Source of the DNA: Azolla caroliniana
Taxonomy: Eukaryota; Plantae; Polypodiophyta
Assembly (NCBI GenBank): GCA_043228905.1
Contig: JBHGNT010000006.1
Coordinates: forward strand, 4,650,001 to 4,714,000
Length of the DNA stretch: 64,000 nucleotides
Direction of reading: 5' to 3'
The notes beneath the pieces are model-generated. The model saw nothing but the letters and a program-made list of their open reading frames with translations, had not been told where the DNA came from and did no database searches. Shown here piece by piece: positions 37,036 through 63,189 of this stretch (position 1 is its first letter; each line of letters starts with the position of its first letter). The translations under genes were made by a program, and so were the position numbers.

Positions 37036-37629
37036 ATGGCTTCCACTCTCCCAAACATAATGGTTATCCTCCTAATAATAGCTACCATGGCCTTGGCAAC
37101 GTCCAATTGGGCAATGGCATCGAGACCTCGAATAATCAAATACTATGTGCAACAAGAGAGTGAGATCGGAATGATTCCAGCATTGGCCGTGTCAGCAGTA
37201 GAACGTGGCTCTAGCAATGCGAGCGGTCAAAATGCGAATCTCGGTGTAGGCTCTGGGGCTGGTGTCGGTGTCTCAGTTGTGTATGAATACCCCATGACCA
37301 AGAATTCAAGTGCTGCCTCACCTGTTGTTGGTTTCATACGTGGAACATCTGTCGTGGTCAATAGTTCAGCTGCTGGGACACTTTTCTTCATGAACAATGT
37401 GATTCATTTTAGCTCCGGAAAATGGGCCGGAAGCACGATATCCCAACAAGGGGAGGCCATGCTCACACGATCGCCTTGGGAATTGGCAGTGGTTGGCGGA
37501 ACGGGTGATTTCCGTCATGCTTTTGGCTATAATGTTGGCTTCTTGGTGGCCACCTCTCGTACACCTCATAACACTACTCGTATCACCACTCGCTACCATG
37601 CCCATCTCTCTTATGTTAAAACTACCTAA
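37036..37629 (+). CDS. dirigent (DIR) family protein, secreted, intronless, 197 aa
   Basis: Hydrophobic signal peptide. Motifs VYEYPMT...VVGFIRG and WELAVVGGTGDFRHAFG. N-glycosylation sequons (NAS, NSS, NTT). Confidence 0.9.
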   Translation: MASTLPNIMVILLIIATMALATSNWAMASRPRIIKYYVQQESEIGMIPALAVSAVERGSSNASGQNANLGVGSGAGVGVSVVYEYPMTKNSSAASPVVGFIRGTSVVVNSSAAGTLFFMNNVIHFSSGKWAGSTISQQGEAMLTRSPWELAVVGGTGDFRHAFGYNVGFLVATSRTPHNTTRITTRYHAHLSYVKTT

Positions 37630-40378: not shown

Positions 40379-40492
40379 TCCAAGCAATCAAGCCCCTTTT
40401 GTAACTGCTACTCTCAACAGACTTGCTTCAAGTCCATCTAAGAGCTGAGAGAGTTTTGCTCTTCGCCCAAATGACAATCAATCTATATAGCC

Positions 40493-41995
40493 ATGGCTTC
40501 CTTAAGGAGACATCAGGGTCTGAACCAAGCACTCAGATATGCAGAGTTGAAGATGCAAGAGGGCGTTCCTATGCTAAGGGGCCATGCTTACACTCTACTT
40601 CAACAATGCTCTAAAGAGCGGAACTTGGCATATACCAGAAAACTTCTCTGCCTTCTGAGGTACAGTAAACTTGATACTATCCCTGTCTTAGCTGACCACA
40701 TCATTAGACTCTGGTCATCCTTCCAATGCTTGGAAGAAGCACACGAATCCTTCCAAAAGGTCCAAAAACCAAGTGTTCATACATGGTGTGCCATTATTTC
40801 AGCCTATACAAATGTTGGTAAGGCTGAAATAGGCTTTGAATTGTATGACAAAATGTTGGATTCTGGTATGCAAGGCAATAAATATGTGTTTCTTGCTGTA
40901 CTTAAAGCATGTGGAAACATCGATAGTGTTGGTCAAGGAAGACAGATCCATCATCATATTTTGAGAAGTGGACTTGAATGTGATGTAACTTTAGGTAATG
41001 CAATGATAGACATGTACGCTAAATGTGGTATGTTAGCTGAAGCTCAGAAAGTGTTCAGCGATTTGCCATGTCGAGATATAGTTTCATGGAATTGTATGCT
41101 CTCGGGTTGTATACAACACGCTGATTTTGAACTAGTTTTGGAATGCTTTGAGCTTATGCAAGGAGAAGGTATCACGCCAAATGTGGTCTCTTGGAGTGCA
41201 ATCATAGAAGGATATACACAACATGGTGAAGACATACTTGCATTAGATAGTTATGTAAAGATGCAAAATTGTGGTTTGGATCCGGATAGAGTTACTTTCT
41301 TGAGCATGCTAAAGGTATGTGGTAACCTAGGAGCGCTATATCAAGGAATGCTTATTCATGACCAAGCTATTAGACACGATTGCCAACTAAGCCTAGGAGT
41401 GGCCAATGCGCTTATTGATATGTATGGTAAATGTTGTAGATTGTTGGAATCACGAAAAGTTTTAGATAAATTTCCCGATCGCGATGTGATCTCTTGGAAT
41501 ACAATGATTTCAGCATATGCACAATCAGACCATTTCAATATGGCGTTGGAATGTCTTGAATTCATGCAGAAAGAGGGCATCAAACCCGACGATGTAACAT
41601 TTATTAGCATTCTTTCATCATGTAGCCACATGGGCTTGGTCACCGAATTTTTCAGCTCCCTAAACTGTATGAAAGATAACCATGGGATTATGCCCGATAT
41701 GAAACACTACACTTGCATGATCGATCTACTTGGCCATGTGGGAATGCTAGATGAGGCTGGGAATGTGAAACGAATCATACGTGATGATGCTATAAGTTGG
41801 ATATCTCTGCTGACAGCCTGCAAAAGAAATGGTAATATTGAGCTTGGAAGAGTATGTTTTGATCAAGTCGTGAAAATCGAGCCAGAAAATGCTATTGCTT
41901 ATGCTCTCATGTCAGCAATGTATAATGATGCCGGTATGGAGATAAATGCTGCAGCATTGGAGGAGATTTCTTCCAAGCTACCTAGGGACACATGA
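40493..41995 (+). CDS. PLS-class pentatricopeptide repeat protein with E domain (organellar RNA-editing factor candidate), 500 aa
   Basis: Repeated motifs (VHTWCAIISAY, YVFLAVLKACG, GNAMIDMYAKCG, DIVSWNCML, VTFLSMLKVCG, HYTCMIDLLG). E-like WISLLTACKRNGNIELG...AYALMSAMY. No DYW domain. Intronless. Confidence 0.95.
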   Translation: MASLRRHQGLNQALRYAELKMQEGVPMLRGHAYTLLQQCSKERNLAYTRKLLCLLRYSKLDTIPVLADHIIRLWSSFQCLEEAHESFQKVQKPSVHTWCAIISAYTNVGKAEIGFELYDKMLDSGMQGNKYVFLAVLKACGNIDSVGQGRQIHHHILRSGLECDVTLGNAMIDMYAKCGMLAEAQKVFSDLPCRDIVSWNCMLSGCIQHADFELVLECFELMQGEGITPNVVSWSAIIEGYTQHGEDILALDSYVKMQNCGLDPDRVTFLSMLKVCGNLGALYQGMLIHDQAIRHDCQLSLGVANALIDMYGKCCRLLESRKVLDKFPDRDVISWNTMISAYAQSDHFNMALECLEFMQKEGIKPDDVTFISILSSCSHMGLVTEFFSSLNCMKDNHGIMPDMKHYTCMIDLLGHVGMLDEAGNVKRIIRDDAISWISLLTACKRNGNIELGRVCFDQVVKIEPENAIAYALMSAMYNDAGMEINAAALEEISSKLPRDT

Positions 41996-44170: not shown

Positions 44171-46107
44171 TTACCTGGCAACACGATCAATTTTACCACC
44201 TTTGCCAGATGACCCATCATTCCCAACGCTACAACGGCTTGTAAGGTGGATCAATGAATGTTTTCTTTGATCTTCAGAATTCATGTTTCCTCTTTGCCCT
44301 ATTTTAATTGTTCCACAATTACTAAAGTTCTTTCTTTCTTAAAAATGTAGAATGTCGGGTATTAGATAAAACTTAAAAGAAAAGACCAAACATTAAAAGA
44401 CAAGTTAGGAGGATCTTAAGGCAAATGTATTTTTACCTTTTTAAGGGTTTGTATAGACAAACAATATATGGTGAGCCTACCACAGTAGTGAGAGCACCTT
44501 ATGGCAGTTTATAAATTATTTGTGTGAATGGATGGATGTATGAATGTATATATAAACTAATCAGGATTAGCTAGCTGATTAGGAGGAAGTAAGTAGGATT
44601 AATGAACCGCTTAGAATTCGCTAACCAGAATTGTTCCATCCTTAAACATCCAAAAGTAAGACTTACGCAGGCAGGGGCTGTAGCTCTCTGTGCTGATTCG
44701 CCCACCATTCATCAAGTTATTGCAATTCTCCACTTCATCTCCGATCCGCCCATCAGAATTAACCATACGATTCTCATCATTAACCCCTTGATTCACAAAA
44801 TTATTCACGTTATCCCCATTAATCCTCCTCTTCAGTGGTGCAGGATTTCGCCTGATTTTGGCCTTTATCGTGCTCTCAGTCCTCTGACTCTTCGAGATGG
44901 AGCCGTGATTGGATTCTTTGATCACTTCACTGACATCATTAATGCTTAATCTCTTCACCGAATTCTGATCTTTCTTTGACAGTCTGATGGAGTTCTTGAT
45001 TGATCTTTCCATGATGGGTGACAAAGGGGGTGAATTGATTATGGGGTTGATTACGTAACTAGTGGGTGGATTATAATTTATTGACCCAAGGGGGCCATGA
45101 TTATCACTATTTAATTGGATTGGGCTGGTTTTTACTTTCCCAATCAATGGATAAATTGGTTCCTCTGTTATCGAATCGACCTCCGCAATGGGTGATTGGC
45201 TGAGAAAAACAGAGTTTGCTAATTGAAGAGATAAATTATTGTCTGAACCATTCGAAGAAGACAGGGACGGTTCGAACAATGGTAAGAAATCCTGTAATTT
45301 CAAATGGGTTAGCTGTGATGCCTGATCGATTGGCTGATTTTCCAAGTTTTGGCAAGTAACTTTCCCATTTTGATCCATTCGTTGGCTAGCAGTAATCTCC
45401 TGGTTGTTATCAGGATTTTGGCCGAAATGATCTGATGCTTTGGTATACATTTCCAGCTGATTTTCACGGATTTCTTCAAATTTATCAATCATTTCTTCTT
45501 TAATTTGATCAATTAATTCTGTGTCAGATATGGTGATGGACGAATGTGGAGAATAATTAAATCCTTCTCCACCTGCGTTTAGAGCTATTTCTTCATCATC
45601 ATCATCATATTCTTCTTCTTCTTCTTCTTCTTCTTCTTCTACGACTAATGCTTCTTCTCCCCCTCCTACTCCTCTTTCTACAGCTATTTCTTCATCATCA
45701 TCATCTTCTTCTTCTTGTTTTTCAACTATTTCTTCTTCTTCTTCTTCTTCTTTTTCAACTATTTCTTCTTCGTCTTCTTCTTGTTGTTGTTTTCCAACTA
45801 TTTCTTCTTCGTTTTCTTCTTCTTGTTTATCATCTATTTCTTCTTCCTCAACCTCCTTCACCTCTTCTTCTCCTTCTTCTTCTCCTTCTACAGTTGTTTC
45901 TTCTTCATCATCATCATCTCCTTCAATTAATTCGTCCGGTTCTGATTCGAAACGATGTTGTGTTTCTTCTTCTAACTCGTCCGGTTCTTCATCTAATGCT
46001 CCTGATTCTTCTGCTTCCATTTCCCCTTCCCATTCTTCTTCTTCTTCTTCTTCTTTAATGGCACTTAATCCATCATCACTAATGTCATCACTCTGTGACG
46101 AGTCCAT
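44171..46107 (-). CDS. Glu/Asp-rich low-complexity protein of unknown function (exon 1 46107-44667; probable exon 2 44337-44171)
   Basis: 498-aa ORF with an acidic N-terminal tract of about 175 aa. A C|GTAAGT donor at 44666 and an AG acceptor at 44338 give an open phase-1 join. The 3' end is uncertain. Confidence 0.65.
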
Positions 46108-48974: not shown

Positions 48975-51900
48975 CTAAATTTTGGGCTTGCCATTCTTCT
49001 GAGATAAAATGTTCCATTCGCTCGACTGAATAAGATTTAAACAGGACATTCAATTGAGTTTATTTGAATTTCGTAAATTATATAGCAGTGAGCATTTGAG
49101 ATTGTAAAAGAACGGCAAATTTCGTAATACTGAAAGTTCAGATTTCCAGAATAGGAGGTCAAACCTCAATCATCCCATTCCGATTCCCATCAAACATTCG
49201 ATAAATCAGGTCCAACTCCCTCTGGTAAAATACAGATCCCATGCAAACATACAGGTACAACTTTATCATGTAAATTTCATTTTAGTAATTAATGTGTTAA
49301 GGCTATGAAACTGGACAGAATTACTCAGATAGGCATATAACATTATTTCACAAAGCTTAAAGCGTTTTTTATTATTGCTAGCATTTATATAAACAAGATT
49401 TTTTTAATCATAAATAGCTACAGACAACCAGTAGTTTCTCCTTATCTATGGGTCACTATTTGTAGCAGTAGAAATATTTTAAAGAGATATATATCCACTT
49501 AATAGAATAACAGCCTTAAGTTAAAACTTGCCATATCAAATGTTTCCTTAGATTTACATAAGGAAAAACTAAGCATTATATGTTACAATCAACCACTTTT
49601 AGCATAAAGCAGTTGGTAAGATGAAACTAAGCCTTGAGATAAAACTTGCCATAAAAACCATTTTATCTAACGAAAAATTAAGCATTAAATTACAAACTAT
49701 TAAATTGTTACATCTATCATCACCCACTTTTCGAATGAAGCATGTTGTAGAATGACCTTTGAGTATTTGCTCAAATTCTTCTCGACTCAATCGATGCCCT
49801 TCACCTGCAATACACCGTCGCATAAACTCTAGAAATCTTGAACTCTTTAAAAAATAATCAAATCATGTGAGAAGTGTAGAAAGCTTAGCAAACTTCTCAG
49901 ATACAAGTTCAGGAAAACGATGTTATCCCAACACCAAATTTGAGATCAGTATAGCGCATATCCGTCATACATATAAACACATTAAAATTCAATTACTCCA
50001 AAATAGTTATGATTAAACTTCAATACAAGGTTGTAAGATATAAAACTCTCATCAACAAAAAGATGAAGATAATTGTCGATAGATCCAGATGAAAGGTCCT
50101 GTAAAATATTGACTCAACATCATCACTTTTTCCTCTCCATAAGCTTGACATATGGTAAGTATCTATGTGGGATGAAGATGAGATCTATATCACAATTCCA
50201 TAAGCTATTTTTTGACCCATCATTCAGCTGTTTTATGCCACTTTTCTAGCTCCCTCATTATGTGAATACATACACACACACACACACACACACGTTTACA
50301 TTCTGCTACTAAAAGAACTGACTGTTTGTACGTGTCACACAGCCAGTATCATGATCTTAATAGGTTGAACCAATATGGCCTTACAAATATGTATACTTCA
50401 TATAAATGTCACTGCTGCTCAAAATAGTCTGAGATGAGCATAATATCATCTCAACAACAACGTCACAAACCCTTAACTCGAATATGACCATAAACCAATC
50501 AATAGGTTCCGCCTCCACATAAAATATATTTATACAAAAATGTACAATGCGTATAGATGTCACAGCTGACTCCTCAAAAGAGGAGCATGATATGATTTCC
50601 TGATCAACATCCCATATAGCCCCACAAACCAATAGATTCCAGTTTCCACAATAAGTTAGGTAAAATCCATAGGTGATAAAGAGGGAAGCCTGCTTCTGAC
50701 ATTTTAACTTGTAGCCAGAATTGTAAGAAGATTTAACTTTCTTGACAGAAATGCAATCGTTACACAAAGTCAAGCTTGGTTCCCTTGACCACCATCTTGT
50801 GGGAAACAGCATAATTTTAATGCATACAAAGCATGTAGATAATATGCATGTGGGATCCCCCATGAAACTGTTGGAATTAGTGTGTTCCAATGTATTCAAC
50901 GCCACTTCCTGTTCATTCATTAGGAATTTGGTTCTTTATCACATTCATTGATGTTGCTACAAGGTATGGGTCTACCTGTCGAAGAATAAGGAAGCGCCCT
51001 TAAGTATGGTCAAGTTATGAATGGCTGTAGTAGAGTTGGAAAAATGCTGGAAGCTGAGAACTCTCTATTTGGAGAATAGAGGAGAATTTAATTATTAAAA
51101 AATCCAGATTTTCAGCGAAAATTGGGGAAAAGGCAAGATAACAGAGAGGAAAGCTTCATAACGGATGCCATACATTTGTCAGATAGGTTCTAATTGCTGT
51201 CTCCAGAAGACCTCTGGCATAGGTCAACGCAGAATGGATAGACCACTAAAGCAAAGGGAGCACCTATAGCGGCAGGGAGATAATGGCATTTATCTGCCAA
51301 TGACAAAGGGTGGGAAGATCATGGTTTGTAAGGCCAGGGATTTCGAAGTTCTATATGATCCAGGTGTCTGATGCAGTGATACACTACATCCCTTCCATCA
51401 AGTTCTTCTTACTGTCAATGCAGAGCCTCTTACCCTCAAAAAGGCTAGGACATGTCAATCTCCAAATAAGTGTCAGTGTGCTATGCAACAGGAGGTCAAA
51501 TAGCCTTCCTACATGGAAATCTAGACGAGGAGCTATATATGAAGTGACTAGAAGGATTTGTAGTCTTAAGGAAGAAGCAATTGCTGTGCAGAAATAGGCC
51601 CCATGCCAATCATAGAAGAAATTTAATTGCTCTCGCAGAGTTTCATCTCTACATAAAGCACAAAGATGGCAGCCTTATCATACTAGTTTCCTCTCTACAT
51701 AAACCACTGACACACTAATTGCAGGAAAACATGATAAGATTCTGCAGGAAACAAAAAACAAATTCAAATTTGCATTGCTTAGTAAAGATCTAGGACACAC
51801 TGACCATATTCTTAGAATGAGGATCATGCAGGACAGACAAAAAGGTGTTTATTTTAAGAAAAGTATAGTGAGAAGCTATTGGACAGATTTCACATGGCTG

Positions 51901-54900
51901 ATGCTAAGCGACTTTTGGCACTTCTTCAGCCTCAAGAGAAGCTTTCAAAGGCAAATTGTCCCACTACTGATGCAGCAGCCGCAGATGTGGCATGCTTCAT
52001 TTTGCAGATAATTGATGCACACTATGGCATCGTCATGTCCAAACACCACATATGCAGAACTAGTCAACAGATTCATGTTTCGACCCCGACCAAGCCATTG
52101 GGTTGCAATCAAGTAAATACTCAGGTATCTTCATGGCACTAAGGCAATGTGTCTATGACATGGTAAAAGGATCAGAATCTTAATGGTTACTGTGATTCTA
52201 ACATGGCAAGCAATGTGGATTCTAACATGTTCACTCTTGCAGGAAGACCTAGCTATTTCATGGAGCTTTCCAGCTTCAATGGATAATCATTCTGCTAGCA
52301 CAGAAGCGTACATCTCAGCTATAGAGGCTTCGAAGGAAGCCATTTGGTTAGCTTGATTACGTGCATACAATGGACTTCCATAGCTAGGTCCAATCTTACA
52401 TCATTACAGCCAAAGTGTAAGTTTCATGCAAGGATAAAGAACATTGATGTATTTGTGAGATGATTGAGGATGGTTCCATCTGTCTAGTTAAGTTTGATAC
52501 CAGTCAATATCCAGCAGATTGTCTTACAACATCTCCCAAAGACCATCAGCAATGACATTAGCCTAGGTGGCTAAATTTTGTGCCACCTGTTCAAATAAAT
52601 GCCACTTCTGACTTAAAAGAGCCTGAGATGAGCACAATATATCGCAGACCCTCAATTCATATATCGCAGAAAACCAATAGGTTACAGTCTCAACATGAGC
52701 TTTGTACATGATATTGTCTCAAATGCATTGTGGAAATTCACAAAGCAAAATTGTGTGTGCTCTATCCTCTCGAATTACAGCTCTAAGAGTCAACATGTGA
52801 TCCAACATTGCGAATGTATCCTGAGCCTTGCTTTTCCTATTCTGTCATAAACAGTTCCACTCAAACTCCAAAATCAGTTCATATAGTTTGGCCAAGTATT
52901 AGTCAATCATGATACTACGACTCAGGGTATCTCCACTTTTAAAGAGCAAGATATTATAAAGCATGAACGGGAAATCACTCAAGAGTCAATTGATACATTA
53001 CAAACCTTGGCTGGCAACAGATTGGAAGATATCATCTATAGCATTCATGTGCTGCAGTAGGTCTCTTAAAGCGGCAAGATCCTAAAATATATAAGTGAAA
53101 CTTCAAACTGCATTCATGGCATCCCTTCTGACTAATATTCAGCATTAGGGTTGCCTGCCATTACCTGAGCACGTTGCTTATCTTTAAAATTGGGAACAAT
53201 ACGCAATGCAATAATCAAACCAAGAAAGCATGATAGGGCTAGTGTTGATGTTGTCCCAATCACCCAGTAGAACATATGAGGATGAACTTCTACTCCACTA
53301 TGTTAAATTACATGTAAGTTATTAGAGCCTTGTTTTAAATGGTTCAAAAAATTGCATTGATGACACATACCTTGTAAGGTTCATGCCAAAGAAACTAGCA
53401 GGTACAGTAGCTCTGCAAAGTGATTGTACCTCATTAAGGAAAGGTAATACGACTATGTTTAAAATCTATGGTATGAATCGCTACTCACAGACTGAAGGTC
53501 ACAGTTGCAATAGACATATAAAGGTTCATTGTTATGATCCGATTGCGTGTTGTATCAAGCCCAAGCTCCCAAACCTCCATGTAGCAATTTACACTTACAA
53601 CTTACGTCAGCCATCACAAGAAAAAATATATATAAATATTTCAATAATAGCTACCTCTTGAGCTGCATCCATTCCCTTTCTCATCTCCTCAAGAGCACCT
53701 CCACAATCATCCACCTTTTTTACATTATTAATATCGCTTATTATCAAGTTTCCAGTTACGTAAAGGAAAAAATTACTATATTTGATGGTAGTTGGCTTTA
53801 CCTCCCGCTGGTAAGACACAACCATGTCTGCAGCAGCCTGGCGAATTTTGTTCATTTGTTCTCTCTTAAAGCTCTGGATTTCAACTTCACTGTCAATTAC
53901 CCAGTCTAATAAGATACTCAGAAAAAAAGTGAAACCAATAGCCATTCTACCGTCAATATTCCTAATTTTATCATCCATAATATAAAATTTTATCACCAAA
54001 TAAATTATTCCGTCATTTTAAGCGTTATTATAGAGCATATGCATGAAAAACAAAATTCAATAAAATTATAATATTAAGTATTGCATTCACAGAATAACAG
54101 AATAATAATCTGTTCACAGAGGAAATTCGTTCGAGAACATTCACTCAATAAAACAGCATTACATGCCTCCTTTTCTTACAATGTTCGATAACAACATCAC
54201 ATGTAACGCATATGAGTATGATGATCTAAAACATACTCTTCATTGCCGGATGGTTCTTCATCTTTTAGACATAATGCATCAAGTAGCTCGTCATTTCCTA
54301 AGATCTGCAAGCAGAATCATTTAATATATAATTCACACAAAGTATGCTCTTTGTGAAACTTATTCTTAACAGAAAAGAATGAAGTTGGATGGAAATGGAT
54401 AATAGAATAAAGAAGAAAATCATTCTATTGCAACTGAAACGTTTATAGAAAAATAAAAAATCATAACAGAAAATATGTGAGTAAAAGAATTACTTGGTCC
54501 ATTGTTTCATGTGTGTCCCGAACATCATGCTCCACTTCTGTTAGTGCTCTTTTTAGAGGGAGCAATCTCTGCAATCTGCCCATAATAATCATGATCAATA
54601 TTTGAGATACCAAGGTTCAATAGCAAATGGGCCTCTCAAAGATTTAAAGTATGCATACCCTCCAATGTTCACGTCATTTGTCAATTCTTCTAGTATTCTT
54701 TCTGTTACCAACTTCAGCCTATTTTGAAAACAAAAAGCTAAAATAAACAGCAGAAGAAAACCTCAACTGAAGTTGTACATTACATTAATCCTCTTAAATC
54801 ACCTCTCAACTTTTTGATGGAAAAAACTACACGTCTCATCAAGCAAACACTCCATCATATGAAGGTGAAAAGGCAACCGATCTTCAGGATTCCTCAACAA

Positions 54901-57900
54901 CTGTTTTGCATGATCAGCCAGAAGACTCGCGAATGCTTCTCTTGCTCTGAAAAGAGTTCAACAAAAATATTTGAACAAACGGACTTCCCTATACATCTAG
55001 CATGGTTATAAACCATCCAATGGCAGCCAGGTAGGCTCATTGATGTTTATTATTTATTAGTTACGACTTTAGGTTTGGACATTTTGGGGATGTATGATTA
55101 CAACATTGTTTTTCTTTCGAGATTCTGTGATCATGATGCAGATAATATGGAGTATGCACCTAGTTCTCATAGAAGATACTATATCTTACCAATTTGGGAT
55201 AGAAAAATAAGGGAAGTGATTATGATGGTGGTAAATTAACAAGCCTATCATTACATCATATCATGTGTTTAAGATCATATATGCAGAACTTACTGCTGTG
55301 ACTGGTCAGAGGCATATTGTTTTACTGTGGCGCCTTCAATTCCTGATAGCTTGAAGGATCCTTTCCTGCAAAGTTTATTTCACCCACTCCATTAGTCAAT
55401 TTTAACATTATCAAGCTGATATGTTGACATGTCTGGAATGCAGAATAGTAATCAAAATAATCTTTATAAAAAGCACAGAAGCAGACCGTGGACGATGAGC
55501 ATCAAATAGCAAACAATGGTCCTTGCAAATTAGAGCTCTCACATTCTCCATTCTCACCAATATCTACACATAAAGTTTTTTAGTAACACTAAATTTGTGA
55601 GTTATATATGCCTATAACTTGAAATTTATCTAATCATGGCTTCAAAAATTATAAATAGAAGATTAAAGAAGAAAAAAGCAAAAAACAATGGAGAGACAAA
55701 GAGAAATAAAAAATGAAATGGGCAGCGGAAGTACATGACAAAGACCAATTCATGTTAGCCTGCACAAAAGCAATCTCATCCTTGCATCATTGCAAAGAGT
55801 AGGTGTAGGGTCATCAAAAAATCTAAGCGCTTCAAACTTGATTTCTATGACACTTCAAGATGCAATGGGTTAGCTTCCCCAAAAAGGCTAGAGAAAGAAA
55901 ATAAATGTATCTCCTCCTAGACATTAGAAAACATTCCAGTATGAGAAAATAGATAAAACCATTGTTAGAAATCCATCCCCTTCTGTTAGTCAGAATTCTG
56001 CAAGGTTGCCAAACCTCATATTTTCTTGGTTAATATATTGTTGCTGGCCAACCATCTTCATCATCTAGTTATGAAGTTCTAATGGCAGTCTTCATATCTG
56101 TACTGGAGCTAAAAATTAAATATACCAGAATGGTTATGTGAAACAAGATGAGCATTTTCTACCTTCTGTCATGAATCTTTAATGTTGCACTTTGTTTTTG
56201 TTTTTATTTGATTAGCAAGGTTAATGTCTTAGATTTTATATTTGAATTTAATCCTTACATAATTACTAAGTCTTTTAATGTGATTCACATGTAAATTAAA
56301 TATTTACTATGCGTTTTTGACACGATTATAAACACTATGTGTTTACCATTTCATTTCCTAAAAGGAAACAATACATTTCTTACTGTATAGTTCCCTTCAT
56401 TTCTAATAACCCCTCTACCATGGTATCTGTATTGTACCCCATCAAAAGCTCTCACATCATTGACAATTGAGCAGACAACTTATTAATGAGGTGTCATGTA
56501 CACTTCATGCAAGAAAAAATTATAGTATAGTGGGTCAAAACCTTGGTTAAAGAGACAATGGTTTCTCCGTCTTATTTCATAAAAAAGAGTATAATAGCAA
56601 ACATTGTGTTCTTCCAATTCTACCCCTTGATGACACAATCAGTATATTCTTTCTTCCAGCAGCATATGTGCATATTTGCCTACCTCAATCTCTAACTAAA
56701 GTGACGAGGTTAGTAACTGCCCTGTCACACTGCACAGTATATGTGGTAGATGTATATTCATATAAGATGATGAATCCATCATTGAATGTGTATAAAAAGT
56801 GTTTTATAGAGGGCCATCTTCCTACCAAGAGATGTCGTGGGGCTGTTCCATGTTATTTTGTTTTCCACGTTGATAATATCAGCTCAGATCAACTCTATTC
56901 TTTTCCACTTCGATCATGTTCAGATTAAGAAAATGCAACCTATACCGGAGCAGGGAAGTGCATTTATGCTTATGCCATGTGACTCTAACCATTGTTACAT
57001 CTCAGCAAACCAAAAATGATTATCTGTATTCAACAAGTTGTTTTGACGACATAAGTGCCAACCTTAAGTACCTTTGTTTAGGGAGCTCCCAAATCTGTTG
57101 GATATTTACTCATTGATTGAAACCATGCCTCAATGTTTATTGAGGCGGCTCCCACCTCTGCCTGAATTAAGTCATGAGACACAGATGCTTTGCTCCTTAT
57201 CATGCATGAAATACTTGAGACTAAAGGTCCCCCCAAATCTCTCTCGATATTTGCCTTGAGGAGACTCAGTCCCCAGGTTTCTAAAGAGTGACTAATGAAA
57301 GGCTCAAACATTGTAAAATCTATGAAAGACATTTCAGCAACAATAGAGTAGTGATATTGTCTAAGTTCCCATAGATCTTGGAACTAGGATAGTTAGGGTT
57401 AGCTAGAATGTGGCACGGTCCAAAACTTCCACATGTTGGTGCCATTGGAGTTCATGAAAACTCCATCAAAAGCTTCAAGCACTGCTTATCCCTGATAGTG
57501 ATGCCAATATGTGGAAGTTTTGGTTCTTGCCACAAGTTCCAACCACCCCTGAATATCCTATAACTAAGAATAATAGGGACAACATTTACTCTATCGTAAG
57601 CCTATAAAATTAAGTCCAACATGTTCAGGTGGTTGTCCATAAATTTGATCATCGTTTGAAGAATTGTGCTTTAAGTCAGCTGATGTAATCATAAAAAGCA
57701 AGCCCAGTTGAACAGCAGTCACCAGCACACTTGCTGAGTTGCATACTTTGTCTGCATGGATGACAGGAAAAAGGAATAGGATTATGTGTATTTCCATACC
57801 AATATCCAAGTAATAACTATACAATGGGTCAGACCCAATTGGGAAAGATGTTAAGAGGTATAGGCCAAGGTGTGATGGTGAAGTAAAAGTGATGAGGCAA

Positions 57901-60900
57901 GTGTGTGCATGGTGGGGTGCAGGGGATGGTAGAGGTGAATTGGGGAGATGGAGGGCAAGGGGCATAAGTGGGACTGAATGTAAGGCATGGGGTAGCACCA
58001 GTCTTTCCTGTTACGGTTAATGTGTATCCTATGAAAGCTTTGGTGTGAACATAGTCATAATCATAGAATGAACCATACACACCATACGTGCATTCGCATT
58101 CGAGAATGATTCAATCAAACGTGTATGGTAAATCATCTCAAAGTTGGATTGGATTTATAAGTTGGAAAAAAAATAAAGATTGGAATTTCAAAAAATGACT
58201 ATGATCTATATTATATATTGATTGAATCAAATGTCAACACAATTGAAAGTTCAAAACTTAGGAATTACTTAACTACTCAACATTAGAAAGCACGAACATA
58301 AATATCAAATAGTTCAAAGACATAATTGTATTGATGATGAGCTCATCTTGCAATTATCAATGTTCTCATCTCGCAACTAGTGAAGGTATCAATTTCTTCG
58401 CTTTAGAACTTTACAAAAAAATGAGTATGAACTATAGAGATTGAATCAAAATATATCATTATAAATTATAATCAAACGTTCAAAAACTCATAAAATGTAT
58501 ATTCGAGAATATGAAGAAAACTGTTGGGGTAAAGGCCCTAAATGACCCACTTATAGTGTGTACAAGTGTATCAGCCTATTTATAAAGGGCAAAAGTCACT
58601 CTTCACCTTTCCGTTATTTTTGGGTCAAGTTCAGTGTGAACTTGGCCAACCCTAAATGGGTCTTATAAAACATGAGTTAAAAACTTTTGGATCTCACTTC
58701 AAAGGTGAGCTCCTCCAACTACTGCTCACTCTATCTTTTCTACCATAGCTCCATTGTTGCATTAAAAAGCTTGTACTAGGGTGAATCTTGAGTATTCCTC
58801 GGCCCTATTGACATCATTCCTAACCCTTACAACTAGTATCAGAGCAGATTTAGTGTTTCTGAACTTATGCGCAGGTGTTGTACAGAACAGGTGTTCCGAC
58901 CCCTTTATTGTAGTTACAAGAGGGGGATGGGACATAGGAAATGCCCATCTGCCTTTCCTATGCTTTGCCCTCGTCAAGCCGATGAAGCAGTTCATTCATG
59001 CAGGCTCAGCTATGGCATCATCCTCCTCAGAAGTGAAGAATCTTTTTGAGATTCGACGATTTGAGGGAACAGGTTTTGACTTGTGGAACAAAAGAATGCA
59101 AAGAATTCTTTTTTTGAAGGATGGTGACAAGGCGTTGGAGGCAGAAAAACTAGAGAGCATGTCAGAAGATGCATGGCAGATTTTAAACAAAAAGGTTGTC
59201 ATATATATTAAGATGGTTGTTTTTGTTGAGATTTTGGTAGATCTCAAAGGGTTGGTATCGGCTTCTAAAATATGGGCAAAGCTGAAGGCTACATATGAAA
59301 ACTGTACACCTGTTAATCAAGTACACCTAATGCGAAAGCTTGTTGGCATGCAACTGGATGAGTCCAAGAGTGCAGTTGAACACTTGTCCTTGTTTACAAG
59401 TACCTTCACAGTTGCAGGACTTAAGAATGACTCCTTTTGATGATAAGCTCAAAGCCATTTTCCTGCTAATGACACTACCTTACTCATTGGAGACATTGGT
59501 AGTCTCATTGTCTAATAGCTCCAACTTGACCTTTGATGGTGTTAGGGGCTCCATACTCAATGAAGAGATCAGGAGAAAAATCTGCAACTCTTTAAATGCC
59601 TTTTGTCTCTTCCACTTTTTCCAAGATATTCCCTTTTTTTTATTCCTAGTTTATTGTACCTGTTTAGTAGAACAAGAGTCTCTTAACTACCAAACAACCA
59701 TTCCCAATTTTGTATAAATAGGCTTATACCAGCCTCTTTTGTAATAAGATTATTTTCTGCTGCTACTTACAGACAAGCACAACTCTTTGGCTGTGTCTCT
59801 ACTCTTTGCAACCATTTTTTCTACTGCTGTCTAACAACCTTCTCACAGCTTGACTGTGTCTATTTTGTTCTAACTCTTCCGTTGCTGCTATTAACAGCTT
59901 TTCTCACAACCTACTGGTATTTCCTTAAGTCTTCTAAGTGATCTCATTGTGTGAGAGTTAGTCTAAGATCCCTGCATTTTCTACATTTCGTTCTTCAAGA
60001 AATTCTACATAACTACATTACATCAAGTTGTTGCTGAGAAAACAGTTGTTTCTGGAAAGTTCCTCTAAAGTTCATCTGTAGCTTATCCTTTCTATTCAGT
60101 TGGTTGGGGGCATTGCTTTTGCTGGTGCTGATATGTTTTCTAGGGGCTCCACATGTACATTATTCACGCTGGTCAGTTATATCATTTCTTATTGCAAATA
60201 TGTAACTGTGGGTATTGGTTGCTTGAATATCATAAGAGTTCCTTATAATCTTTCAGGTTATATCCTGCTACTATTGAAGCATCTACCATCTAAGGTTGTA
60301 GATCCACATAGCTCAAGCTTCTAATCTAGCTTTAGGATTACATATTTAGAGTATAAATTCAGAGCTTTCCCATTTTTGCATGTTCATTTTCATTGTGAGT
60401 TAATCTGATTTCATTTTCATATGATCCCAACATAGTCTTGTCTCTTAGTTCTAGAGGGGTGATTAAAGTCTTCGAACTCTAAAACTAGGTTTCCATTGGA
60501 TTTTGAACCTGAAACTATTTTTGAAAAGCTTAGAATTACTACAACAAATATGGACATTGTACCAGCGTTCATTTATCAATAGCTATATTTTGTCAACTCC
60601 TCCAAAGACAAAAAGTGGCATCTATATGAAAAGACATACCTCTATAATCACATTGATTCGCAACAATCGATCGCATTAGAATATCATCATTGAGACAAGT
60701 CATTTACACTTCCTCAAAAAACCTACATTGTGATAGTAAAAAATGCATCGCACGCAAGCCATGTTGTAAAATACTAAGCATACAATATGCATAAAATATG
60801 TATGCTAAGTATTATAAAAGTATTCTAGCTTTTTTAAAAACACTTAGAATACATATTCTAAAAATAAAATATGTATAAGACGCATAGAATAAGTTAAATA

Positions 60901-62948
60901 CTTTGTATATTTGTATTGCGTCTCACAACTGTTTTTTGGCCAAATTTTTATTTTTATTTTATTTTATTGTTAGGGAATGTAAAATATTTGTTTAAGAAAT
61001 AAAATATTTAGAATACATTAGATATGTTAAAGATATTTAAATGGAAGTTCTAAAATTTAGAATACATGTTAAACACTTCAGAGCATTCTAAAACACATAC
61101 TAAACAGAAAATAAGTATGATGCATACACACCTACACATGACCTGTATATGTATCATATACTGAGGCACATTTAGACTTCTACAAATTGAAACTTTGGAT
61201 TCGACCCCTAAGTTAAAGATTCAGCTTGTCATCGACCTAGGAAACTAATACTCTCAATATAATTGTTTACTAGCTTATCAAACAACTTAGATTGAATTAA
61301 TTTGGAAAAACCATTTGCAAACATACTTGGCTAAGGTGTCTTCATAAAAGAAGCATAAGATATTATCATCATGAAAAATATCTAACAATAAATTAGGGAA
61401 CATAAATTACCTGGTTATTTCTAACAGCAATGGCAGATCGCTTTGGAATGAAAAAATTTCCAGCTAGAAGATCGAGGTCTTTTGTATGCACACCCTGCAC
61501 AAGCCATGAGACAATTCAAGTAAAACTGTACTAACAAAAGGTTAAATGCAACGGTTATCTGAACTGTTACTTTCGATATATCCATGATATAGCAAAGATT
61601 TGGGAACTGACTGTTAAATGGATCCACTAGGCATAGCATGTGTTTGTGAATAGAAACCAAATTACGATGGGATGTTTGGGGCATTAATTGATGTCATTCA
61701 TTATTAAGAAGATGGTCATACAGCCTAATTTTTTATTACATGTAATTGATATCATTTATCCCAGCTATACATTTTGCTATATGATATCAATAGCACTTCC
61801 ATATTTTGAGGACACATGTAGCTTAATTAATGATAGAAACATGCATAATTTTTATCAATGTTTAATATATAGCTTAATTAATGATCAGATCATCCATAAT
61901 TTTATCAGTATTTAATATATAACTTAATTAATGACAGGAAAAACATATAATCTTGATGTTTTATAAGATTAAGTAATTATATGAACATTGCAAATTTTCT
62001 CAAATAGATAGAGATTGATGTTTTGAGGATGTCTAATATATAACTTAATTAATGATAAGATCAATGAAAATTTCTCGATGTTTAATATATAGCTTAATTA
62101 ATGATAGAAACAATATATAACCGCTCAATGTTTAGTAAATATCTTCATTAATGATAAGAACAATGTGAAATTGCTCGATGTTTTATCAGCTTAATTAATT
62201 ATAGGAATAATGCATAATGCCTTGATGATTTATTGGAGAAACTAACAGTGGGAGCAATGCATGGATGTTTAACATATAGTGCATTTAACGATGAGAACAA
62301 TGCATAATTCCTCTGTTTGTGGACCATGATAATATCTCACCTTCCGAGCAGCAATGCTTCAAATTTTTAAACAAATTGAAAAAATAACTTTTTTTTTTTT
62401 TACTTTTTTATAAGCATAAAAATAGCTTCAATAGAAACAAACTACAAGTTTAAAAAGGTAACTAAGTTTCCAGAAGATAAATATGAGAAATATATATATA
62501 AAGAAGTTACCAGTTCAGAAGAGTGAAGAAGTAAAGTTTCCCAATTTCCATGACAACTGATCCTGATAACACTATATTTGACACCATTGAAAGAGATTCT
62601 TTCGTCTCTGCTAGCACTACCACTACTGTTACTGCTGCCACTGCTACCTCTATCCGTAGAAGAAGAATCTTTGCGATCTTTCTGATTCTTGAAGAAAGAA
62701 TCTCCACCTCCTTCAGATTTACTACTGATGATACGGAGGCCGAGGCGTTTCGGAGAAGAAGAAGGAGAGGGAAGGGGAGGAGAAGGAGAGGAAGAAGAAA
62801 ATCTGTGAAGGATGGGAGGAGGAGGAGAAGGATCTGAGAAGCTTCCACGGATTCCAATGTTCTGCCATGGATGGTGATTCTTCTTCTTCCCAGAGGAGAC
62901 GAGAAATCTGAAGACAGTTCTGAAACCCTTCCTTGTCGATCTGGTCAT
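48975..62948 (-). CDS. MRS2: MRS2/MGT (CorA-family) Mg2+ transporter with predicted organellar transit peptide and C-terminal EF-hand, 17 exons, 564 aa
   Basis: Exons (all GT-AG, phases consistent): 62948-62511, 61494-61411, 55563-55487, 55365-55294, 54946-54803, 54718-54659, 54575-54494, 54304-54237, 53889-53802, 53714-53655, 53574-53489, 53412-53371, 53297-53165, 53081-53006, 49804-49728, 49221-49165, 49025-48975 (1695 nt). Motifs ILVRMENVRALI, LPFHLHMMECLL, LQRLLPLKRAL, LDTTRNRII, TM1-FFGMNL-TM2. Confidence 0.92.
51100..52570 (+). mobile_element. heavily decayed Ty1/copia RT-RNase H remnant in MRS2 intron 14
   Basis: AFLHGNLDEELYM, KDLG...ILRMRI, GYCDSNMA, EASKEAIWL and PADCLT remnants in copia order. 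Confidence 0.8.
58522..60470 (+). mobile_element. Ty1/copia remnant in MRS2 intron 2 (LTR about 58522-58831, PBS-like 58834-58845, gag 59012 to about 59580)
   Basis: TGTTGG...TTACA then TAGTATCAGAGC. Gag FEGTGFDLW...LMRKLV...LLMTLPYSLETLVVSL...ILNEEIRRK. The right boundary is uncertain. Confidence 0.75.
61800..62230. repeat. AT-rich minisatellite of about 50 bp in MRS2 intron 1
   Basis: Core A(G/A)CTTAATTAATGA recurring at about 61820, 61871, 61921, 62042, 62091 and 62188. Confidence 0.75.
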
Positions 62949-63189
62949 GGAAGGAAGGAAAGACGGACGGAAACAGACAGGCAGACAGACGACACAGCGA
63001 GGATCGTCGTAAAACCCTTACACCTTGTTCGTTCACACAGAAACCGACAGTAGCAGGTTTTTAGTACAATTGTTTCTTTTTTTTCCCCCTTGTAGGCTTC
63101 TACTGAAAAGCGTTGTTTTCTTTTTGGGGCCTAAATAATTTGTCGGTACAATTCGGTGATGTTTCTGAAGGTGGCAGGCATCTGGAGAA

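Follow-up and report, generated by a model that had tools for sequence, protein, structure and literature searches.

A fern gene for a probable MRS2-family magnesium channel whose spliced C-terminal tail is predicted to form an EF-hand lobe

The window analysed here is a 64,000-nucleotide stretch of the Azolla caroliniana genome (contig JBHGNT010000006.1, positions 4,650,001 to 4,714,000), and it carries on its minus strand, from 62948 to 48975, a gene for a probable MRS2-family magnesium channel that continues past its second transmembrane helix (TM2) into a tail predicted to be an EF-hand lobe. The gene model has 17 exons and 564 codons, no internal stops, and GT-AG ends at all introns. Intron 2 (5.8 kb) contains an antisense copia gag piece, and intron 14 is 3.2 kb long. 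An earlier, sequence-only reading of this DNA had proposed an MRS2/CorA core with a spliced EF-hand module on four in-phase exons after TM2. Those exons (14 to 17 in Table 1) lie where it placed them, in frame with the upstream exons, and are joined in transcript contigs, and the core is borne out by the Gly-Met-Asn (GMN) filter, the pore rings and the site-3 acids described below.

Assembled contigs from five sequencing runs (X1, X3, X4, X5 and X7) were used as RNA-like evidence; their RNA status was guessed by the tool, none being on record as RNA. One contig from run X1 (1843 bases, 99+% alike to the window) carries all 16 splice joints, and contigs of this type are taken as transcripts because 16 introns are precisely removed. 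The X1 transcript reaches 48909 at its 3' end, and the contig also covers 62510-63030. The joint that completes the EF-hand loop (49025/49165) is present in four of the five RNA-like runs, joint 49802/53004 also in four (X1, X3, X5, X7), and joint 49221/49728 in at least two (X1, X4); run X2, which is probably DNA, has none of the listed joints. One contig, from X3, reads through exon 15 into intron 15 (49802-49620) and stops there, where the frame in the window stops before the second EF-hand (EF2). It may be unspliced pre-mRNA, or an alternative end or isoform without the sensor loop. This one run of five is what speaks for the tail being chance read-through or a wrong gene model, but that explanation is refuted by the X1 contig with all its joints, by the loop-completing joint in four runs, and by a tail conserved in six other ferns (53-63 of 81 residues identical), and its probability is negligible. 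Among named proteins, those of Adiantum and Ceratopteris come closest, at 78-81% identity over a 47-residue query. Pfam matches to single exons are weak (EF-hand_1 at E 0.052, MRS2-like at E 0.00094), with two of eight gene fragments matched. Two candidate features were dropped: a putative exon at 60722-60640, where four RNA-like runs join 55563 directly to 61411, and an ATG at about 62868, which is out of frame and runs into stops.

The core of the protein is that of an Mrs2 channel. A profile of 30 aligned sequences matches both human MRS2 (E 7e-36) and the Mrs2 of Chaetomium (E 2e-24), and Pfam MRS2-like is found in all 30. The model of P0005, a fern homologue identical to the window protein at 270 of 345 core residues, has a mean predicted local distance difference test score (pLDDT) of 68, low in the N-terminal 136 residues, and displays an alpha/beta domain, a helical domain, a long stalk and two transmembrane helices. 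Foldseek with this model returns human MRS2 as the best match (E 1.6e-15), with fungal Mrs2 also among the first matches. Residue roles were assigned by alignment to human MRS2 together with the accessible text of 10.1101/2023.08.12.553106. In the window protein GMN stands at residues 429-431, at the end of the first transmembrane helix (TM1). All 27 land-plant rows have the residues of the pore rings, D398 and R401, and the site-3 acids E305, D309 and E381; E180 is present in 26, the remaining row having a gap, and Ile at the Met gate (I405) in 25.

The structures of human MRS2 (8ip3, 8tul, 8ts1) and of Chaetomium and yeast Mrs2 (8q8p, 8q8q, 3rkg) are alike to the window protein in fold, GMN, Asp/Arg rings, site-3 acids, long stalk and two transmembrane helices. 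The window protein differs from them in its lobe of about 90 residues after TM2, in the Ile at the Met gate, in an overall identity of about 22-23%, and in reading K151-D-L-D154 where they have RDLR. According to the available text of PMC11919701, Mg2+ gates fungal Mrs2 and RDLR stabilises its open state. Because this motif is absent, the window protein is filed as a variant and not as a plain Mrs2. Judged from its sequence, it is likely a pentameric mitochondrial inner-membrane Mg2+ channel of the MRS2 family, and conduction is predicted.

The tail is predicted to fold as a lobe of two EF-hands, one degenerate and one canonical. EF2 has a canonical 12-residue loop with D540, N542, N544, G545, I547 and E551, the ligands that the sequence-only reading had named, and E548. 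Against a PROSITE-type EF-hand pattern, the six-frame translation of the window gives no match and the spliced tail gives one, as that reading had held in saying that the loop is complete only after splicing; 12 of 20,000 shuffles of the tail also match. The degenerate partner that it placed ahead of EF2 is also there: EF1 (502-513) keeps positions 8, 9 and 12 alone, with S, G and G at positions 1, 3 and 5, and its loop length differs between homologues. Among the 30 aligned homologues, 18 match Pfam EF-hand_7 at E<=0.01 (best 3.9e-9). A profile of the C-terminal part finds RIB57 best, then MICU1 (1.9e-9), CML18 (3.8e-9), MICU2, NCS-1 and calmodulin (1.1e-6), with E values from 1e-12 to 1e-6. 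MICU was considered as the specific donor of the lobe and is not claimed, since RIB57 scores better in this search.

The structure of the lobe and stalk was read from models of homologues (P0005 and P0053). In both, TM2 is predicted to run unbroken into a helix of about 25 more residues and then into a four-helix lobe. The P0053 model (mean pLDDT 84, and 84-93 over the lobe) has four helices and two short paired strands there, and its lobe aligns with the EF lobes of TPC1, the ATP-Mg/Pi carrier and citrin (VIA Z 5.8-5.9). A complex prediction of the P0005 tail against the soluble domain with Ca, run without alignments, scored 0.02 and carries no weight in either direction. Matches to the tail alone in the ESM Atlas score below 0.9, in clusters commonest in haptophytes and diatoms, and are a lead only. 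A separate ESM Atlas cluster of 51 members, commonest in Oomycota, has CorA PF01544 in 100% and EF-hand_1 in 29% (score 0.84); it is possibly a second, independent CorA-EF-hand fusion, and again a lead only. The entering helix of EF1 (53006-53081) carries an acidic motif, His then Asp-Asp and Asp-Asp, that is near-invariant in homologues; the window protein has Asn-Ala instead of the first Asp-Asp pair.

Homologues with this architecture were found far outside the ferns. A homologue search gave 38 proteins from 7,999 scored candidates, and those with names include ferns, lycophytes, liverworts, mosses, Cryptomeria, Taxus, trebouxiophytes, a tail-less Vitrella protein and three EukProt 'SM' models, which we take to be Spirogloea. 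Twelve of the 38 have no species name, and the strong-scoring ones among these group with ferns, mosses, conifers or green algae. No named angiosperm is among the 38, in keeping with the earlier statement that the MRS2/MGT proteins characterised in angiosperms end soon after TM2. Searched with a profile, 1.84 billion cluster representatives yielded 224 matches at E<=1e-30, and the best 150 of these were used. The resulting 186 relatives comprise 134 with GMN and a tail, 20 that end at most 75 residues past GMN, 11 with other or decayed tails, and 21 that are fragments or have no GMN match. Names were looked up for 30 proteins: named tail-bearers are Gefionella okellyi (a malawimonad), Tetradesmus (UniRef name 'EF-hand domain-containing protein'), Attheya (a diatom) and Plasmodiophora, and named tail-less ones are shark MRS2, Naegleria (partial) and Ochromonas/Chlorochromonas. 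An extra search with the C-terminal profile among proteins of 661-2000 residues gave six matches and added little taxonomy.

By these sequence matches the tail architecture is not fern-specific: it spans bryophytes, lycophytes, conifers, green algae, a diatom, Plasmodiophora and a malawimonad, and it is apparently missing from flowering plants. The suggestion of a clade kept in algae and seed-free plants was too narrow, as Cryptomeria, Taxus, Attheya, Plasmodiophora and Gefionella also carry it. Angiosperm MRS2/MGT proteins (AtMGT1-10, banana MaMRS2) are alike in having two C-terminal transmembrane helices and GMN; that they have no such tail is taken from the wording of the accessible part of PMC7529347 and from general background on the family, and not from an alignment made here.

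Trees were built on the core only, with FastTree on 144 rows and with IQ-TREE (quick, LG+G4) on 81 picked rows and 301 columns, omitting from the latter the fragment P0051, which ends just after GMN. Their main results are the same. The window protein clusters with ferns (support 100), and it falls with P0011 from Marchantia in one land-plant group (Shimodaira-Hasegawa-like approximate likelihood-ratio test, SH-aLRT, 97) whose branching follows the species tree, which, on these sequences, fits an orthologue that is old and mostly single-copy. Both trees lack an outgroup, with no sequence of angiosperm MGT, yeast or bacterial CorA in them, so they do not tell gain of the tail from loss. A branch with support 85 sets the 21 tail-less rows apart from the others, and this split is neither shown nor rejected. 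An early duplication fits because both sides, tailed and tail-less, span several eukaryote supergroups.

In raw counts the second Arg of RDLR goes closely with the lack of a tail. It is present in 19 of 20 tail-less rows, none of 25 land-plant rows, 1 of 64 other tail-bearing rows and 4 of 6 rows with decayed tails. Co-evolution of the loop with the loss of RDLR is not shown by an independent-pairs sign test (five pairs, p = 1). We suggest, tentatively and with more doubt than belief, that two lineages of MRS2 existed already in early eukaryotes. One, without a tail and with the RDLR latch, would be that of animals, Naegleria, Vitrella and Ochromonas. In the other, so far unrecognised, a fused EF lobe would gate mitochondrial Mg2+ uptake by matrix Ca2+; this lineage would survive in a malawimonad, in Rhizaria, diatoms and green algae, and in every group of land plants except the angiosperms, where it would have been lost. 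If true, a CorA-family channel with its own Ca2+ sensor would be known for the first time, as a one-chain counterpart of MCU-MICU.

The sequence-only reading had placed the channel in an organelle, with its tail in either stroma or matrix. The matrix now appears likelier and the stroma less so. The first 20 residues have four Arg, one Lys and no Asp or Glu, with a helical hydrophobic moment of 0.95, and most of the 25 homologue N-termini inspected are similarly Arg-rich and acid-free. The same architecture occurs in the plastid-less Gefionella and Plasmodiophora, and Table S1 in the available part of PMC8733655 lists separate MGT10 genes in non-angiosperm plants. For these three reasons mitochondria are likelier than plastids, and from the sequences a mitochondrial location is highly probable. 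A channel of the chloroplast envelope that responds to Ca2+ or Mg2+ in the stroma, similar to AtMRS2-11/MGT10, would suit the long Ser/Pro-rich N-terminal extension and the many photosynthetic carriers, but the plastid-less carriers, the amphipathic Arg-rich N-termini and the separate MGT10 genes all speak against it, and it is quite improbable. The claim that both termini lie on one side agrees with human MRS2, whose C-terminus is in the matrix (accessible text of 10.1101/2023.08.12.553106); in CtMrs2 the C-terminus is a basic ring beside the acidic willow helices (available text of PMC11919701).

In the proposed mechanism, the EF lobe would lie on the matrix side, close to the acidic willow helices and to the Asp/Arg rings of the pore, as suggested by the solved MRS2 structures. 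Matrix Ca2+, with Mg2+ competing, would bind EF2, and the Ca2+-bound lobe would pull via the TM2 extension on TM2 and TM1 and so favour closing, in a way that is likened to the matrix-Ca2+ inactivation of human MRS2. According to the accessible text of 10.1101/2023.08.12.553106, that inactivation acts through a site not yet found and survives the loss of site 3, its mechanism being still open. Ca2+ control of this pore is therefore plausible. Binding of matrix Ca2+ to EF2 with closure through TM2 and TM1 has about an even chance of being right. Of the separate predictions, that the lobe binds a divalent cation is rather likely, and that the signal is mainly Ca2+ and alters gating is held with belief and doubt in equal measure.

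Evidence for a metal site comes from the loop across homologues. In 123 complete loops, some of them near-copies, Asp is found at position 1 in 120, Asp, Asn or Ser at position 3 in 98 and at position 5 in 121, and Ile, Leu or Val at position 8 in 122; position 12 is Glu in 79 and Asp in 37 (either in 116). Ligand positions 1, 5 and 12 are kept jointly in 113 of the 123, in plants, algae and protists. Glu at position 12 is the usual Ca2+-type bidentate ligand, and Asp there points to a Mg2+-compatible site. The check on orthologues thus stood in that the ligands are mostly kept, and fell short in that many loops are less canonical than this one: in five other ferns position 6 is Arg, and the conifer-like P0013, P0015 and P0016 have His at position 3 and Ser at 6, more decayed than Cryptomeria and possibly a step toward loss in seed plants.

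The Asp12 loops, the frequent loss of Gly6, the distribution of the second RDLR Arg and the Mg2+ gating of fungal Mrs2, in which RDLR holds the open state (PMC11919701, accessible text), would together suit a lobe that is an extra Mg2+ sensor, closing the channel at high matrix Mg2+ and perhaps replacing a weakened RDLR latch. Land-plant loops have the Ca2+-type Glu12 in 22 of 23, however, the core retains its own Mg2+ site-3 residues, and the tail/RDLR link comes from very few independent events, and a Mg2+ sensor seems unlikely. About as unlikely is a structural or partner-binding EF domain serving assembly, stability or docking, in which any metal would be constitutive and non-gating. Conservation is highest at the positions of the hydrophobic core and of helix capping, many loops in ferns and those of the conifer-like proteins are not canonical, and a sister group (P0106, P0125, P0154, P0166, P0184) has kept the post-TM2 helices and lost the EF2 loop, while keeping the second RDLR Arg in four of the four that have that part; but the joint retention of ligands 1, 5 and 12 is more than a bare scaffold seems to need.

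Several results weigh against a Ca2+-sensing lobe. Gly6 is kept in 93 of 123 loops overall and in 10 of 23 land-plant loops, 62 of the 123 meet the full PROSITE-type pattern, Asp12 is found in 36 of 100 loops outside land plants, and some tail-bearing relatives, Plasmodiophora included, have lost the loop. The conservation counts lean upward because both the search profile and the tail class contain the loop. At most one metal site per subunit is expected, because EF1 is without ligands 1, 3 and 5. The fern P0005 has no Pfam EF-hand at E<=0.01, Foldseek with the tail model gives no match at E<=0.001, and although EF lobes fill the fold-search lists for the tail, each match is weak (best VIA Z 6.2). 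The location is drawn from composition and distribution, and human MRS2 is Ca2+-regulated without such a tail.

Two-EF lobes attached to or paired with a transporter are known from MICU1/2 on MCU, TPC1, the ATP-Mg/Pi carrier, citrin and polycystin-2, whose pores are unrelated, and no single donor family is indicated. MICU sits in the intermembrane space as a subunit of its own, whereas the lobe of the window protein is fused and predicted to face the matrix. No description of an MRS2-EF-hand fusion was found in the open literature (subscription journals and bioRxiv supplements being outside the scope), including the accessible text of PMC7050145, PMC5948301, PMC10284544 and PMC7529347; in that of PMC13022745, a cross-eukaryote Mg2+ transporter phylogeny, 'EF-hand' has no occurrence. 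Novelty thus holds for the description of the fusion, and less so for the rest: the fusion is already visible in automatic annotation, where precomputed Pfam EF-hand matches exist for 9 of the 38 homologues, and the clade itself is probably in print. The available text of PMC8733655 (2021) describes a 'clade III' of plant MRS2/MGT without angiosperm members, and its Table S1 lists one MRS2 gene in Marchantia and two in Physcomitrium. P0011 is MARPO_0032s0166, the listed MpMRS2 (Mapoly0032s0166) and the Marchantia orthologue, and from the naming and text MpMRS2 is inferred to belong to clade III. In that text no fern, conifer or protist samples appear, no function is given, and 'EF-hand' does not occur.

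Taken from its sequence and transcript contigs, the gene is a real, expressed and deeply conserved MRS2 variant with a predicted sensor. Regulation of MRS2 is an open matter, the human Ca2+ site being unfound (10.1101/2023.08.12.553106) and fungal Mrs2 being Mg2+-gated (PMC11919701), as far as the accessible texts go. The fused EF lobe is a defined candidate sensor, addressable by two point mutations in tractable hosts. Flowering plants are suggested to have lost an old mitochondrial Mg2+ channel kept by most other plants and many algae, and Arabidopsis would therefore be an unreliable model for Mg2+/Ca2+ cross-talk in the mitochondria of plants and algae.

Table 1. Exons of the channel gene, with positions in the window and the features assigned to each; human residues are those of MRS2.
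Exon	Positions	Strand	Features
1	62511..62948	-	ATG; likely mitochondrial presequence, Arg-rich and free of Asp/Glu ahead of residue 39; Ser/Pro/Gly-rich linker; first matrix-domain beta-strands; joined to exon 2 in X1
2	61411..61494	-	K151-D154 at the position of the Mrs2 'RDLR' latch, neither Arg present (alignment to human MRS2)
3	55487..55563	-	E180 = human site-3 E138; Pfam MRS2-like match
4	55294..55365	-	Variable loop
5	54803..54946	-	Helical domain
6	54659..54718	-	E282 = human D216
7	54494..54575	-	E305, D309 = human site-3 E243, D247
8	54237..54304	-	No feature assigned
9	53802..53889	-	Stalk helix begins
10	53655..53714	-	Stalk; E381 = human site-3 E312
11	53489..53574	-	Stalk into TM1; D398, R401 = human pore rings D329, R332; I405 at the position of Met gate M336
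12	53371..53412	-	End of TM1 with GMN filter (G429-N431, 53387-53379)
13	53165..53297	-	TM2 and basic post-TM2 segment; helix predicted unbroken into tail (homologue models)
14	53006..53081	-	Linker helix and entering helix of degenerate EF1
15	49728..49804	-	EF1 strand and exiting helix (L509, S510, E513, F514)
16	49165..49221	-	EF2 entering helix and loop positions 1-9 (D540 at 49191, to E548)
17	48975..49025	-	EF2 loop positions 10-12 (E551), W552, short tail, stop

Elsewhere in the window, a dirigent-like gene (37036-37629, plus strand) and a pentatricopeptide repeat (PPR) gene (40475-41995, plus strand) show no sign of a link to the channel. A 498-codon frame at 44611-46107 on the minus strand is very acidic in its N-terminal half, and Pfam gives nothing better than E 0.076 for it. 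The stretches 864-28011 and 58766-59440 hold retroelement pieces, among them copia gag/integrase, a reverse transcriptase-RNase H-integrase frame, endonuclease and reverse transcriptase frames, and three DUF4100 frames.

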